Below, piece by piece: positions 17,560 through 31,775 of a stretch of DNA of 64,000 nucleotides. A model generated the notes under the pieces. The model was not told the origin of the DNA, searched no databases, and saw only the letters and a list, made by a program, of their open reading frames with translations. The DNA is from Escherichia phage Ec_Makalu_002: sequence record MN709127.1. The stretch is one strand, 5' to 3'. Position 1 is the stretch's first letter; every line of letters begins with the position of its first letter. A program made the translations under genes and the position numbers.

Positions 17560-17592
17560 AAAGGCGGGGGACAATCCCCCGCCTTTTTATTT
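17560..17592. terminator. rho-independent terminator between convergent units
   Basis: Hairpin ggcgggggacaatcccccgcc followed by TTTTTATTTT. Confidence 0.7.
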
Positions 17593-18072
17593 TGCTAAAT
17601 CATTGCAATATTTTAGTGCCTTAGTTTGAAACTCTGCGCTGTTAAGTTCTTCATAACGGTCATAATCACCGTTTAATGCTGCCTTTCTTGCTTCTTGTTC
17701 TATCTGCATGTCAGACATGATAATACAACGATCCCGCGCTTTCATCTTCTCAAGTTGTATAGACTCTTCTTGTTGCTTGCGCAATTCTTCTTGATGCTTC
17801 TTTTCTTCTCGTGCTTTCTCTTCCCGCGCTTCTTTGATTGCATCTTTGAACATCTGCGTTTGTGGTGCTAAACCAACTTTAACGCGATCCACGTCTCGAC
17901 GTTCCATTTTAGAAATAAAACATGATTCGATCTGGTCATCGCTTGCATATGCTGCTTTACATTCACGAAGCAAGAAAACCGGATCTGATTTAGCATTCAT
18001 CATAGCTTCCATGTTAGTACAACCAGTAAGCATGAATGCAGCCGCAAGACCAATCAGTTTAATCATTTTCAT
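17587..18072 (-). CDS. predicted lipoprotein (161 aa)
   Basis: N-terminal signal peptide with lipobox LTGC; charged coiled-coil-like remainder. Confidence 0.6.
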   Translation of the reverse strand: MKMIKLIGLAAAFMLTGCTNMEAMMNAKSDPVFLLRECKAAYASDDQIESCFISKMERRDVDRVKVGLAPQTQMFKDAIKEAREEKAREEKKHQEELRKQQEESIQLEKMKARDRCIIMSDMQIEQEARKAALNGDYDRYEELNSAEFQTKALKYCNDLAK

Positions 18073-18893
18073 TTAGTCACCTCACCGAAAATTGTAAATT
18101 GTCTACGATTCTCATCGCCGAAAGATTCTACTACGTCGTTTACCTTGATGCAAGTCCCGCGCGGTAAAATTACTTCACATTCGCAAGGATTCCATGCAAT
18201 AGACCCAACAACAAAACCTTTATGATCTTTTACGTCAATTACCCATGATACATTACAAGAATGTTGCATCTTTCCGGTCATTGATTCATATCGATTCTCA
18301 CAATAAAGGCTAGTGCTGTTTGAAAGCCATCCTCCAAAGATGATCGGTGTCATGCTGGTCGATACAAAGTTTTTAAAGGTAAATTCCTTATCTTCAATAA
18401 TACGCTCTATTGTCTGAATGTCAAGATGTTGACCGCGATAAAGAGTACCGTTTAACTTTTCGGTTTTATCCATGACACAATCCATCAAATCGACAATCTC
18501 TGATATCTCATCGGTCATGTCTTCTTCCCCTAAGAGAGCACCATTTACCCATTCGTATTGTTCAGACACATAATCGCAGATTGCATTATATTCTGCTGGG
18601 GTTATGTTGTTATGTTTGTAATGTTTGAATACATTATCTCCAAAATCTTCGGAATGTACTTCATACATCACATTAATGATTTTCTTGACAAATCCATAAT
18701 CTTGCGTTTCTTGCTCAAGGAAACGGATAACTTTCACGTAATCATCAAAGTTAATATGATCGCTGATCATTTCAGTGATCATGTAACCATTAATCCCCTC
18801 AATGCCATATGTTTCGATGTAATTATCCATACGTTCCATCATTGATTCGCGTGATTCTTCGGAAAGGCGAAAATCCTGTAATTTCTTGAACAT
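18069..18893 (-). CDS. Alt-like ADP-ribosyltransferase (second, shorter paralog)
   Basis: R-S-E signature: LYRGQ, FVSTS, CECEVILPRG; 274 aa. Confidence 0.65.
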   Translation of the reverse strand: MFKKLQDFRLSEESRESMMERMDNYIETYGIEGINGYMITEMISDHINFDDYVKVIRFLEQETQDYGFVKKIINVMYEVHSEDFGDNVFKHYKHNNITPAEYNAICDYVSEQYEWVNGALLGEEDMTDEISEIVDLMDCVMDKTEKLNGTLYRGQHLDIQTIERIIEDKEFTFKNFVSTSMTPIIFGGWLSNSTSLYCENRYESMTGKMQHSCNVSWVIDVKDHKGFVVGSIAWNPCECEVILPRGTCIKVNDVVESFGDENRRQFTIFGEVTK

Positions 18894-18972: not shown

Positions 18973-21024
18973 TTACATTTTAAATTTATCCGGCATAGCG
19001 TCTACAGACACAAGATCAGCGATAAGCTGACGTAGAGTTGCCTTATCTGCTTTCTTACGTTCGGTTTTAGCTTCGGTAATGAAGCTGGAGAAAGACAGGT
19101 CAGAAGCAGGTTTAACAACACCTTCACGGATGAATGCATCACCGTCCGCGATCATCTCACCAGATTCTTGTAATGCTGCCAGTTCATTTTTGTTCATAAT
19201 ATGTGCCTCGATGTAATAAGTTTCTTGTGAATCCGTCGATGCCGTAGCACGAGTTACCGTATCAAAGGATAACACAACACCGCGAGGAAGTAAAATCTCG
19301 CATTCTTTGTAAGCAAATGCTTTGTTACCTACTGGCAATACAGGGATGTTTTCCGCGCCAGCAATGGAGAAAGCAACATTAGCGCCACCTTCACCGCGAG
19401 ATCCCGCCATAGAATCAACACCAGCAACGGCACTAGCCACGTTTGCATTCCAGCCACCAAAAATATTAGGTGCAAGGGAAGTGCTCACATAGTTTTTAAA
19501 GTAAAACGCTTTTTGCTTACGTGCAGTTTCCCACATTTGCGACCGGAAGTCCATACCACGATACAAGATAGTACCTGGATCAAGTTTAACACCATAGTTA
19601 GCAAATGCGTTATCCAGTGCATCACACATCTTGACCAATTCTTCTGGGTCTGCGATGCCTTCAAACTCTTCCAGCTTACGGTCGGTTAGGAAGTTGTTCA
19701 TATTGATGTATGCTGCATCCGCATATTCGCTCAACACAAAACCTTCCGCGCCAGGCAGATCAAGATCAATATCTGCCATCATTTCACCCATGTTGCTAGC
19801 AATTGCTTCAAACATACCGGAAGCAACATTACGCAGGGCATCGGTTTTAATCTGCGTGATGTGACTACGCAGCATTTCAGCTTTTACATCTGCTGGCATA
19901 GACTGGTCGACGCGATCCATTGCCAGGGCGGTGATCTTGTTTTCGAATACTTCCTCGCTCATGATTTCTTTTAAGCGTTTGATTGATGCTGCGATGACTT
20001 CCGCAGACAACGGATCATATTGATCCTGAACTTTTACCAGTTCGCTTACTGCATATTTTGCATCGGCTTCGCTTTCAAAAATAGTACGCATGAAACCATA
20101 GCGAGTGATAATATCACTTGTCCAGTCATTCAGAGAACGGGCGGTTGAACGTTCTAAGGCTTGACGGTCAATCAGAGTATTAAACTGTTTCTTAGGTTCT
20201 GCTTCGGTGATATCTTCTTCCGGTTTAAGATTAATTTTTTCTGGATGATTCACATAGTCGCTGTTATAGGTCGCTTGAGTTTTCAGCATTTCTTCTTTAG
20301 TCAAACGAGATTTAGCCGCTACGCGTTGTTCTGCTTCCGCGTTTCGTTCTTCTTCCGACACAAGACTAGCCGCATACGCCTCATCTTTAGTCAGAGATTC
20401 ACCAGTAGCCTTAGATACCCAGCGATCACCTAAATCACTTTCTACTTTAGTGAACAGGGATTCATCGAGTTTAATCCCTTTAATCTTATCAATCGCCATC
20501 CCGCGACGTTTGACAACAACTAAAGCGATCTTTTTGCTGGTCATTACTTCCTGCTGGAATACTTCAAACTTCGGTGTACGACGCACCAAACGCTCTATAA
20601 CGCGCTTAACCAGTTCGGTCTTACCTTTCATGCGGGATACGTTAAAACGGAACATAACAGCGTCTAATTGCGCTTTACGGGCTGTTTCCATGACCACATC
20701 AAAAGCACTTGACATAACTGCAATCGGGTTATCTCCTAGACCATTTTTAAGCTGTACAATACGACCGCTTTTGTTCATTTCGCACAGTACAACATGTGCG
20801 GTCTTGTCACCCATACGAATGATTTTAGGTGTTTTGTTGGTGAAGTTACAAAGACGGACAATCACATCTTTATCGCGTGTCTGTACTGCAAAAAGCTGTT
20901 TAGGATTCTGCTTAGGCTTTAAGCACTGTACCGGAGCAATACTGCCAAAGTTTTCTTCCTCTTCCGTCAACAGCCATTTCTCGAAAGATTCAATCATTAG
21001 ATCGTCGATTTCTAAGTTAAACAT
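18973..21024 (-). CDS. alt: Alt ADP-ribosyltransferase
   Basis: 683 aa; LYRGMD, YVSTSLAPNIFGGW, YKECEILLPRG; T4-like position next to gene 54. Confidence 0.85.
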   Translation of the reverse strand: MFNLEIDDLMIESFEKWLLTEEEENFGSIAPVQCLKPKQNPKQLFAVQTRDKDVIVRLCNFTNKTPKIIRMGDKTAHVVLCEMNKSGRIVQLKNGLGDNPIAVMSSAFDVVMETARKAQLDAVMFRFNVSRMKGKTELVKRVIERLVRRTPKFEVFQQEVMTSKKIALVVVKRRGMAIDKIKGIKLDESLFTKVESDLGDRWVSKATGESLTKDEAYAASLVSEEERNAEAEQRVAAKSRLTKEEMLKTQATYNSDYVNHPEKINLKPEEDITEAEPKKQFNTLIDRQALERSTARSLNDWTSDIITRYGFMRTIFESEADAKYAVSELVKVQDQYDPLSAEVIAASIKRLKEIMSEEVFENKITALAMDRVDQSMPADVKAEMLRSHITQIKTDALRNVASGMFEAIASNMGEMMADIDLDLPGAEGFVLSEYADAAYINMNNFLTDRKLEEFEGIADPEELVKMCDALDNAFANYGVKLDPGTILYRGMDFRSQMWETARKQKAFYFKNYVSTSLAPNIFGGWNANVASAVAGVDSMAGSRGEGGANVAFSIAGAENIPVLPVGNKAFAYKECEILLPRGVVLSFDTVTRATASTDSQETYYIEAHIMNKNELAALQESGEMIADGDAFIREGVVKPASDLSFSSFITEAKTERKKADKATLRQLIADLVSVDAMPDKFKM

Positions 21025-28421: not shown

Positions 28422-28898
28422 TTATTTTTCTTGATGCTCGCGCTCGTACTTTTCGAAATAAAATTCTACTGGCTGATCGTGGATTGAAAGCAAGCCAAAG
28501 CGTTTAGCCGCACGTAATCCCATGTTACGTTGAATGTACTTCTGGAAGTTCTCGCGTATACACTTACGCCAGTATTCTAAGCCCATACAGCTTTTGTAAA
28601 GATTGCATTGCACACAAGCCGGATTCATGTTGTCAAGTATATCGTGCTCCGGTTTATGCATTCCTACAACCTTATACTTCCACGACCCATCATCATTACG
28701 GGCAATTCGTCCATTTTCATCATAGACTACTTTTGAGCGTCGCAATACTGGTTTGATGTGGTCTGCGTGCCAGCGATCCCCTAGTTCCTCGCCACAATAG
28801 GCACAACGTCCACCGTATTTCATTTTCAGGATCTGGCGTTGCTCTTTCTTTGACAATTTTTTAGGTTTAGGGGCTTTCGCCCCTTCATTATCACACAT
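28422..28898 (-). CDS. HNH endonuclease
   Basis: CAYCGEEL...WHADHIKP...CVQCN (His-Me finger with flanking Cys pairs). Confidence 0.7.
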   Translation of the reverse strand: MCDNEGAKAPKPKKLSKKEQRQILKMKYGGRCAYCGEELGDRWHADHIKPVLRRSKVVYDENGRIARNDDGSWKYKVVGMHKPEHDILDNMNPACVQCNLYKSCMGLEYWRKCIRENFQKYIQRNMGLRAAKRFGLLSIHDQPVEFYFEKYEREHQEK

Positions 28899-30393
28899 CG
28901 AATACCTCTTTTACTGTATTTGCAGTGGTCTTGTCGTAGCGAATACGTTTGATGATTGGGAGAAATAAAGAGAACTCCGGTTCATCTTCTTTACGTGATT
29001 TGCTGCGGATATATCCGTTGCATGTCATCTCAATGACTTTTCCAATCAGGTTATGACGGTCAGCCCATAACATTTCTCGGTCAAGTTCATTTCGACGATC
29101 GAACGGAATTACACGTTCAATACCATCATCACCTTTTTCGGTTGTGGTGTCTGTCAATCCCGATCCGGTGTTAGTCATCATTCGTCCGCACGCACTACGG
29201 ACAGTAAAACCGCCTACCTTGTTAGGTTCTTTACTGTGCGGATATACATCAACAATTTCCGCGTCGAAGTCAATCACTTCTTTAAATTTAACCTGGTCTT
29301 TACTGCGACGATCTTCAAATACACCATGTAAATTTTTAAGGATAATACCTTCTAATCCCATGTTGACATAACGATGATATACTTCGCGAGCTTCATCGAT
29401 ATTGTTAACTACAGTATTTTCGATTATCTGAACACGAGGATCGTTAAGTTCTTCAACAATCTGTTTTAGTTCTTCGAATCGATCTTTATATTGCTTCGTT
29501 GCTTTCTCGTTTCCGTAATACACATCACGGTCGATAACATCCCAGACAGTGTAAACAATACATTGGGCTTCTTCTTTTGGAATAGTTCCTTTCAGTGATT
29601 TGTTGAGGATACCATTTCCGGTCTGACGGTCTGCAACAACGGATTCTTTCACTGCTTCCGCTACTGGCGTTAATGGCATTTCCTCTTCTTCAAATATCCA
29701 TGATAGAGTACCATCATAAACGCTCTCAACGAAGTTCTGCGCTGGTGTTTGAGAAAGGGTAGGCATATATACCAACTCACCATCTAAAACAATTCCACGG
29801 CCTCGTAGACGCTCTAAAACAGCAAACAAATCATCCAGCCCCTGATAGGTATTACCTGAACGGGTATAGATTGCTAATGTTTCTCCGTCAATATCAGCCA
29901 TACCACGAGCGCCATCGCTTTTAAGTTGTGCATACGCCGGATATTTGATATTGGCAATAGTCTTATCAGAACATGACGATGCAAGGTGGCACGGCTGCTG
30001 AGGAATCAGCTTCTTCCATACCTTGTTTGCGGTGGTAGCGGAACAACCGCATTCCAGATCACGATTCAGGACCATCATTGCAACTTTAGCATCATCTTCT
30101 GACAAGCAAGTCAGAGTATCGGTAACTAGCTGTAATGCAGCATTACCAGTTACTTGACGCGTGGCAAGTTTATTTTTAAAGACCTGTAATGCACCGGATA
30201 AAGACAATACAGACGAATAGCGAGACGGTTTATCGTATTTCTTTACGCCAAACGTAACCTGCTTGCAATATGCCAGATAAAAGCATTCTTTCAGCGTTTC
30301 ATTGCTTGCAGATTCTTTCAGGATCTTTTCTTTCAGCGATGTTTTGTCAGTAGCTGCAAGCTGATTAATGATATTAAGAATTGACATTTTCAC
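28891..30393 (-). CDS. 30: ATP-dependent DNA ligase gp30
   Basis: 500 aa; adenylation motif AQLKSDGARG; overall resemblance to T4 DNA ligase. Confidence 0.9.
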   Translation of the reverse strand: MKMSILNIINQLAATDKTSLKEKILKESASNETLKECFYLAYCKQVTFGVKKYDKPSRYSSVLSLSGALQVFKNKLATRQVTGNAALQLVTDTLTCLSEDDAKVAMMVLNRDLECGCSATTANKVWKKLIPQQPCHLASSCSDKTIANIKYPAYAQLKSDGARGMADIDGETLAIYTRSGNTYQGLDDLFAVLERLRGRGIVLDGELVYMPTLSQTPAQNFVESVYDGTLSWIFEEEEMPLTPVAEAVKESVVADRQTGNGILNKSLKGTIPKEEAQCIVYTVWDVIDRDVYYGNEKATKQYKDRFEELKQIVEELNDPRVQIIENTVVNNIDEAREVYHRYVNMGLEGIILKNLHGVFEDRRSKDQVKFKEVIDFDAEIVDVYPHSKEPNKVGGFTVRSACGRMMTNTGSGLTDTTTEKGDDGIERVIPFDRRNELDREMLWADRHNLIGKVIEMTCNGYIRSKSRKEDEPEFSLFLPIIKRIRYDKTTANTVKEVFDV

Positions 30394-30853
30394 CTCGTTT
30401 TGTTAAACGTTCACGAATATCGTTTAGGATACTACAAAATTCCGATTCGGTCAATATGGTCTTTAACGGATCAGTTCCACCTATGCTATGACGCAATTTC
30501 TTATTTCCGGTAGCGAGCAATGCTTTACAAAAATCTGGGTTATTTCGTGCCATCGTAACAAATGCCAGATGTACCAGTCTGTAATAATGCTCACTCATTC
30601 GATGAATCGGGCGACCCTGAAAATATAGCATGTGATTCTCTATCTTTTCAGTCCTTCCGGTTCTTTTTGCTTTGCAGCCGTGCATCAAAAAGATTTCTCT
30701 TTGTCTCTGAGGGTTCTTAAATCTTAGCCCCTGTAAAAATCCTTCTGTGCTGTTAATATCGCAACCAAATAGACGGAATGGCCTTTTATTGAAATTACTC
30801 AACTCGCCAGATGGATAAGGTCCACCCGCATAGATATCAATTTCAGAAGTCAT
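30374..30853 (-). CDS. NADAR (YbiA-like) domain protein
   Basis: GELSNFN, STEGFLQGLRF and LLATGNKKL correspond to the YbiA motifs G.FSNF, T.EH.FQA.KF and LLAT...KL. Confidence 0.55.
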   Translation of the reverse strand: MTSEIDIYAGGPYPSGELSNFNKRPFRLFGCDINSTEGFLQGLRFKNPQRQREIFLMHGCKAKRTGRTEKIENHMLYFQGRPIHRMSEHYYRLVHLAFVTMARNNPDFCKALLATGNKKLRHSIGGTDPLKTILTESEFCSILNDIRERLTKRGENVNS

Positions 30854-31008
30854 TGAAACTAATCTCGCTAATCAGAGAGAACGGATCATAATCGTCATGA
30901 GGAATATCGATAGTAATCGAGTGAGGATTTACCCATACACCAAACTGGTCTTCTTCGGTGAATACTTCGGTATGGATTTCGTGGATGTTTACATTCATAG
31001 TTTTCATA
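30853..31008 (-). CDS. hypothetical 51-aa protein
   Basis: ATG 31008, ATGA overlap with the next gene; below track cut-off. Confidence 0.3.
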
Positions 31009-31047: not shown

Positions 31048-31078
31048 TAGCCAAAATATAGGCGGGATTATTTCCCGC
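31048..31078 (-). terminator. hairpin terminator after gene 31
   Basis: Hairpin ggcgggattatttcccgcc. Confidence 0.45.
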
Positions 31079-31090
31079 CGTTTAAACTCA

Positions 31091-31454: not shown

Positions 31455-31775
31455 TTATTTATAAATTTCGACGATCTGCGCTGGAGTCAGCCCGTCTACA
31501 TTAATCAGACTATCAAGCCCAAAACTACGGAAACCTTCAACTGCAATTTCATATACTGGCAAAGATGTTTCTGATTCTTTACGCGGTTTTTCTACATTAG
31601 GAACTAACCACTTTTCGTATGTTTCAAAAGGCATCAGTGCCGGATCTCGCGTGGCGATCATCTCGCGGACAGTACCATCTTTCTTAGTAAACTGCAAAGA
31701 GTGAGTACCGACCGAAAACATTTTCTTTAGTGCTTCACGAAGTGCGATAATATCAATTTGTTCAGTCATTATCAA
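31455..31775 (-). CDS. hypothetical protein (106 aa)
   Basis: Track ORF; position between cd and 31. Confidence 0.55.
   Translation of the reverse strand: MIMTEQIDIIALREALKKMFSVGTHSLQFTKKDGTVREMIATRDPALMPFETYEKWLVPNVEKPRKESETSLPVYEIAVEGFRSFGLDSLINVDGLTPAQIVEIYK

Follow-up and report, generated by a model that had tools for sequence, protein, structure and literature searches.

Gene 30.3 of Escherichia phage Ec_Makalu_002

The subject of this analysis is gene 30.3 of Escherichia phage Ec_Makalu_002, which lies at 30374..30853 on the minus strand of the window, by which we mean the whole 64,000-nucleotide stretch of record MN709127.1 that was analysed. In the open reading frame (ORF) listing of the window it is an ATG ORF of 159 amino acids plus stop, and its product is predicted to be a single NADAR/YbiA-fold domain without extensions. 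Over the 1.5 kb around the gene, identity is 99.9% to Escherichia phages Ec_Makalu_001 and Ec_Makalu_003 (Krischvirus gec3s) and ~97% to RB49, JSE, Phi1 and GEC-3S, and the window is therefore from an RB49-like relative of T4. The ORF is labelled "hypothetical protein" in the closest records and is named gene 30.3 in RB49, while the T4 protein, gp30.3, has been named AdfN (anti-DarT factor NADAR) by Johannesman et al., 2024-25 (PMC11257639, PMC11825919). As set out below, we regard the protein encoded in the window as probably an anti-DarT NADAR as well.

The genes around 30.3 are all on the minus strand, in the order gene 31 (a GroES-like co-chaperonin), a hairpin, a 54-amino acid ORF, 30.3, gene 30 and an HNH endonuclease gene. 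Gene 30 (28891..30387, minus strand) encodes an ATP-dependent DNA ligase by annotation and by its match to PF01068 (E=2.8e-22), and lies directly downstream of 30.3. The stop codon of 30.3 (30376..30374) falls within the ligase gene, 14 nt in from its start, and the ligase ATG is annotated at 30387 in MN894885, so that the two coding sequences share 30374..30387 on the minus strand (GAGGTGAAAATG...TAA), as read from the sequence and from the coding sequence and ribosome-binding site annotation of MN894885. A GAGG precedes the ligase ATG, which places the ligase Shine-Dalgarno sequence within 30.3, and together with the overlap this suggests translational coupling to the ligase gene. The first-pass annotation had put this overlap at the 3' end of the ligase gene, which is incorrect: it is at the 5' start, and the ligase 3' end is instead overlapped by 8 nt by the HNH ORF at 28422..28898.

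Family and predicted fold of 30.3

The first-pass annotation had recognised a NADAR protein from the motifs GELSNF, TEGFLQGLRF and LLATGNKKL, and all three are present in the 30.3 translation, at residues 16-21, 36-45 and 112-120, respectively. The protein matches Pfam PF08010 (Phage_30_3) with E=5.3e-39 (133.6 bits; the gathering score is 36), over profile positions 2-138 of 138, and phrog_652 with E=2e-45. In Pfam the gp30.3 branch has a model of its own, PF08010; gp30.3 proteins had been assigned to the NADAR superfamily in 2012 (cited in PMC11543638). BLASTP against T4 gp30.3 gave 38% identity over 151 amino acids (E=4e-31). This similarity, together with a conserved place between genes 31 and 30 when T4 is compared with RB49 and Makalu, identifies the gene on sequence grounds as the Krischvirus (RB49-type) orthologue of T4 gene 30.3/AdfN.

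An AlphaFold2 model of 30.3, built from a 14-sequence alignment, had a mean predicted local distance difference test score (pLDDT) of 94.1 and a predicted template modelling score (pTM) of 0.89. In a Foldseek search of the PDB the model matched E. coli YbiA (2b3w, E=3e-6, TM 0.65) and then the Phytophthora nicotianae NADAR (PnNADAR) with ADP-ribose (8bau), and all other matches were at E>2. A search against viral models returned homologues from T4-like phages at TM ~0.9, followed by a long list of NADAR-annotated proteins. By its modelled structure, then, 30.3 has the YbiA fold of the solved NADARs, in which small β-sheets flank a helical core, and neither the profile nor the structure searches failed to place it in this superfamily, within the gp30.3 branch. 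The C-terminal α-helix, assigned by DSSP on the model to residues 136-157 (30383..30448, minus strand), is intact, with pLDDT >90 to approximately residue 150. Phage RB69 has lost the 15 C-terminal residues that make up this helix, and the loss correlates with sensitivity to DarTG1 (PMC11257639).

The PF08010 family is large. An exhaustive profile search of a representative library, from which family diversity was taken, recovered 1680 cluster representatives at E<=1e-3, including bacterial chromosomal and multi-domain members. A search for related loci among viral contigs returned just two near-identical loci, without added diversity. Beyond phages, we observed a chromosomal bacterial protein of 355 amino acids with a C-terminal extension (L009 5001..6068, on a 788-kb contig), as well as tandem proteins with two or three PF08010 domains, in which one copy lacks the catalytic Glu and has Asn, Gln or Ala. 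Besides the L009 locus, these observations cover proteins P0015, P0019, P0026, P0052 and P0079.

Active-site residues and a Lys-to-Arg variant

Three positions are key to NADAR activity according to the literature. Two of them are a Glu that coordinates the distal ribose (E43 in PnNADAR, E88 in the E. coli C7 (EcC7) NADAR and E36 in T4) and, seven residues further on, a Lys that coordinates the diphosphate (K50, K95 and K43, respectively; PMC11543638, PMC11125620, PMC11257639). The third, a His in the last strand, is the phage-NADAR counterpart of the catalytic Glu of YbiA-type enzymes and the Asp of DarG1-type enzymes (PMC11125620, PMC11543638). We compared these positions with 151 other full-length family domains, and counted residue combinations in 170 matched domains including 30.3.

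Alignments place the key Glu at Glu37 (codon GAA, 30743..30745, minus strand), in an S-x-E-G-F-L-Q motif in which Glu is found in 151/151 domains; T4 AdfN carrying E36A is inactive (PMC11257639). Likewise, the last-strand His is His122 in the sequence LRHS (codon CAT, 30488..30490, minus strand), with a strand modelled at residues 119-121, and His occupies this position in 98% of the domains. The absence of catalytic residues on alignment had been named as grounds for rejecting the NADAR assignment; Glu37 and His122 are retained, but the phosphate-binding Lys is replaced by Arg44 (codon AGA, 30722..30724, minus strand), at the position of T4 K43, PnNADAR K50 and EcC7 K95. Arg44 keeps a basic side chain. 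The first-pass annotation had made no mention of this exchange. The combination of Glu, Arg and His occurs in only four of the 170 domains, namely 30.3 itself, its Krischvirus cluster, a 69%-identical relative and one bacterial protein. Furthermore, in 5 of 43 conserved columns the Krischvirus clade has a residue other than that of the PF08010 consensus (S9A, M36T, K44R, C55F and W78F), of which the S9A and C55F columns are less conserved, while Thr at position 36 was seen in none of the 151 compared domains.

As E. coli YbiA is the best structural match, and its metabolic role is known (cited in PMC11543638), 30.3 could in principle be a metabolic N-glycosidase of the YbiA type, with riboflavin-pathway intermediates as substrates. 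We consider this scarcely credible, given that 30.3 has the phage-type His and not the Glu of the YbiA family, that riboflavin genes are absent nearby, and that YbiA too hydrolyses guanosine-ADP-ribose (PMC11125620).

Conservation and selection

Full-length 30.3 is found in 59/59 Krischvirus records of the phage collection, with no frameshift. Pairwise comparison of six genus members gave at most 25 synonymous and at most 4 non-synonymous differences, and a ratio of non-synonymous to synonymous substitution rates (dN/dS) of ~0.03-0.05 or lower in every pair, which indicates strong purifying selection on the gene. With its PF08010 match, its full-length presence in 59 records and its low dN/dS, 30.3 is not a chance ORF. 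The AGA codon of Arg44 is fixed in 6/6 Krischvirus genes compared, and Arg is likewise found at position 44 of the metagenomic relative P0002, with only 69% identity and the same order of genes: rnlA, spanins, pseT, cd, 31.1, 31, 54-amino acid ORF, 30.3, ligase.

These data bear on whether 30.3 might be an attenuated or non-functional relic, in which K44R has crippled activity in vivo and the phage is no longer protected. Mutants at the equivalent residue lend this some substance, since K43A abolishes T4 AdfN function (PMC11257639) and the EcC7 DarG1 NADAR carrying K95R, while still hydrolysing guanine-ADP-ribose in vitro, fails to rescue cells from DarT1 (Schuller et al., PMC11543638). However, the low dN/dS, the intact gene in every Krischvirus genome and the retention of Arg in a distant relative with the same synteny together indicate a working protein, and we therefore hold a relic to be very unlikely.

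Neighbouring genes and comparison with T4

The 54-amino acid ORF lies directly upstream of 30.3 (30843..31007, minus strand), has no assigned function (phrog_15277, E=6e-42), and its stop overlaps the start of 30.3 by 11 nt. It occupies the same position in RB49, MIZ5, Brandy and the 69%-identical metagenomic relative (L008 4847..5011). Since T4 AdfN has been suggested to depend on a further phage protein, this ORF could be a candidate partner of 30.3. Further upstream, a terminator-like GC-rich hairpin follows gene 31 (31061..31079, minus strand; an annotated terminator in MN894885) and forms the upstream limit of the block containing the 54-amino acid ORF, 30.3 and gene 30. Directly after the hairpin, between gene 31 and the 54-amino acid ORF, an AT-rich promoter-like stretch runs to 31008, and the two elements together are a candidate for a 'PeSL' module, the promoter-terminator unit known from RB49-like phages (PMC4122927), which they resemble. 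A promoter scan around 30.3 found 5 sites against 4.4 expected in shuffled sequence, and we claim no promoter here.

On the other side of the locus, directly downstream of the ligase gene, the HNH endonuclease ORF (28422..28898, minus strand, 158 amino acids, PF01844) carries in RB49 the annotation of an HNH endonuclease that resembles a protein from a Salmonella plasmid, and is possibly a mobile insertion beside gene 30. A gp31.1 homologue is located between cd and gene 31 (31455..31775, minus strand; L008 4101..4409 in the metagenomic relative), and precomputed hits on the relative's copy give a WYL_2 (PF10902) domain, with a WYL domain also labelled in the Krischvirus record W115.

In comparison with T4, the 30.3 protein resembles AdfN in belonging to PF08010, in sharing its identity along the whole length of a single domain (159 compared with 152 amino acids), and in having the key Glu (E37/E36), the phage-type His (H122/H123) and an intact C-terminal helix; the neighbourhood pseT - cd - 31 - 30.x - 30, all on one strand, is also alike. 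The two differ in that the C-terminal helix of 30.3 is 7 residues longer, and that Arg44 stands where T4 has the essential Lys43, while Met and Trp are replaced by Thr36 and Phe78. Moreover, with 30.1 and 30.2 missing, 30.3 directly adjoins the ligase gene and overlaps it, and in contrast to T4 the ORF listing showed no internal 30.3' ORF of at least 40 amino acids on the 30.3 coding strand.

Another difference from T4 is that Krischvirus is reported without a hydroxymethylcytosine pathway (PMC4041780, PMC13390438), and RB49 is reported with unmodified cytosine (PMC4041780). We considered the idea that 30.3 is special because Krischvirus DNA is unmodified, whereas AdfN was proposed in a preprint to prefer hydroxymethylcytosine DNA (PMC11257639). 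This idea was dropped, as AdfN still protects modification-free T4-GT7, which continues to depend on it (PMC11825919, section 10), and the published AdfN paper withdrew the preference for hydroxymethylated DNA (PMC11825919). The Krischvirus phages SAP (OZ034687) and TB34 (OX001802) are each 96.7% identical to the 30.3 gene of the window; they are mutually 99.96% identical, yet differ in cytosine modification, with no pathway identified (PMC13390438).

Proposed function of 30.3

The first-pass annotation had suggested that a phage NADAR could act as a DNA-repair-like factor against DarT toxins, and this agrees with experiments on the T4 orthologue. T4 gp30.3 was shown in 2024 to hydrolyse guanosine-ADP-ribose on DNA in vitro, and not thymidine-ADP-ribose (PMC11125620), and it is inactive on cytidine-ADP-ribose (PMC12945103). 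In infection, AdfN is both necessary and sufficient for T-even resistance to DarTG1, an effect abolished by E36A and K43A, and it strips ADP-ribose from DarT1-modified DNA without binding DarT1 (PMC11257639, PMC11825919). By comparison with this work the suggested anti-defence role is supported, but it had already been published for T4.

AdfN-Bas32 (from a T5-like phage) and AdfN-Bas60 (Vequintavirinae) are, like 30.3, phage orphans, and theirs is an anti-DarTG1 activity that neutralises DarT1 even without infection; they were independently acquired from other NADAR branches and are not PF08010-type by the phylogeny of that paper (PMC11825919). The antitoxin NADARs of DarG1 (E. coli C7, and Geobacter lovleyi, 8bat) differ from 30.3 in carrying N-terminal extensions that form an electropositive channel, with Asp in the last strand (PMC11543638, PMC12945103), and DarG1 is encoded beside DarT1 whereas 30.3 is an orphan without a toxin partner. 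YbiA (2b3w) and PnNADAR (8bau) have just 17-21% identity to 30.3 and a catalytic Glu where 30.3 has His, and they differ as well in physiological role, which for YbiA concerns riboflavin intermediates.

In our proposed mechanism, 30.3 would be transcribed together with the 54-amino acid ORF and the ligase gene, with probable translational coupling to both, and its product would be a bare NADAR-fold N-glycosidase. Its likeliest job would be to cleave the N2 bond between ADP-ribose and guanine in phage DNA modified by the host toxin DarT1, with Glu37 acting on the distal ribose, Arg44, in place of the usual Lys, on the diphosphate, and His122 serving as the third residue of the active site, in the place of the catalytic Glu/Asp of cellular NADARs. 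Such cleavage would free ADP-ribose and restore guanine, and so may permit replication in E. coli carrying DarTG1.

The present analysis establishes the gene, its family, fold, residues, synteny and purifying selection. From these we infer that 30.3 is a phage anti-DarT NADAR and that the T4 chemistry and anti-DarTG1 phenotype probably carry over to the Arg44 enzyme. Several points weigh against this reading. Identity to the protein tested in T4 is just 38%, and our literature search found no study linking Krischvirus and DarTG. T4 AdfN is itself fully effective only in cells infected by T-even phages, and may require a further phage protein (PMC11825919). Against the canonical NADAR profile, PF08719, 30.3 scored below threshold (E=0.032, 14.9 bits, cutoff 35.1), with 11/15 family members matching at E<=1 (best 1.1e-6); the NADAR link of 30.3 is therefore transitive and structural. 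Family-profile searches of the PDB with 15 and 69 members gave E. coli YbiA as the top match, with the SNF and SxE...Q..K motifs aligned (E=0.015 and 0.026, respectively), and these profile matches, too, are sub-threshold. YbiA was the only NADAR that these searches reached, with 8bau and 8bat never recovered, so the ADP-ribose contacts R79, W89, R93 and W133 of PnNADAR are unmapped on 30.3 by sequence. Finally, three residues depart from the family: position 44 is Lys in 99% of the 151 other domains and Arg in one, near-invariant Met36, beside the catalytic Glu, is Thr, near-invariant Trp78 is Phe, and the failure of K95R in the EcC7 antitoxin described above concerns this very Lys-to-Arg exchange.

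The same residues can be read as retuning of an active NADAR hydrolase towards another substrate, such as guanine-ADP-ribose on RNA, DNA modified by another guanine-targeting toxin of the YarT or pierisin kind, or soluble ADP-ribose derivatives of host immune signalling. Arg44 is rare, Thr36 and Phe78 are atypical too, and strong purifying selection maintains all three. In addition, all NADAR families remove guanine-ADP-ribose from RNA in vitro (PMC12945103), NADAR rescue is toxin-specific in vivo despite a common in vitro chemistry (PMC11125620), and Iyer and Aravind have argued that phage NADARs mainly target soluble ADP-ribose derivatives (PMC9503650). However, anti-DarTG1 is the only in vivo phenotype known for the orthologous group (PMC11825919), Lys-to-Arg is a conservative change that keeps in vitro guanine-ADP-ribose hydrolysis in the DarG1 NADAR (PMC11543638), and the Glu, the His and the remaining conserved core are unchanged. 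We therefore judge a different substrate to be unlikely, and retain an anti-DarT role as the preferred reading.

We also assessed the two ADP-ribosyltransferases that the first-pass annotation had reported in the same phage. Both are present on the minus strand, as an Alt-C-terminal-like protein of 274 amino acids (18069..18893) and an Alt homologue of 683 amino acids (18973..21024), and both match PF03496 (E=1e-15 and 5.6e-9), in agreement with the RB49p183/p184 annotation. A 161-amino acid ORF without a Pfam match follows these adjoining genes (region 17587..18893, minus strand). It had been proposed as an alternative that 30.3 regulates the phage's own ADP-ribosylation, and it might thus erase marks made by Alt and the Alt-like enzyme, whether arginine-linked on host proteins or on nucleic acids. 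The two genes do lie 9.5-12 kb from 30.3 on the same strand, but they are not adjacent to it, with ~30 small ORFs between. Nor did we find a literature report of a NADAR acting on protein-linked ADP-ribose, and the base specificity of these enzymes is narrow, with the NADARs tested inactive on thymidine-ADP-ribose and the T4 NADAR on cytidine-ADP-ribose (PMC11125620, PMC12945103). As the T4 AdfN phenotype is fully accounted for by DarT1 (PMC11825919), the proposal finds no support, and we regard it as highly improbable.

Implications

Three short motifs were enough to recognise a probable anti-defence enzyme from sequence. The sole new element here is the genus-wide natural Lys-to-Arg variant, as the remaining biology is already published. 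Because in the DarG1 NADAR the same exchange preserves hydrolysis in vitro while abolishing antitoxin function in vivo, a shift of specificity is possible in the Krischvirus clade. We suggest tentatively, and with low expectation, that fixed, strongly selected remodelling of the ADP-ribose pocket in this AdfN clade (K44R, M36T and W78F) may shift specificity for substrate or toxin, for example towards another guanine-targeting ADP-ribosyltransferase or towards RNA, and that the enzyme may work without the T-even-specific co-factor that T4 AdfN apparently requires. In any case, the Arg44 variant falls at a residue with studied mutants and is a cheap test case for the same in vitro chemistry with different in vivo protection, and if such remodelling were true, the Krischvirus enzyme would be a natural tool for the determinants of NADAR specificity in vivo.
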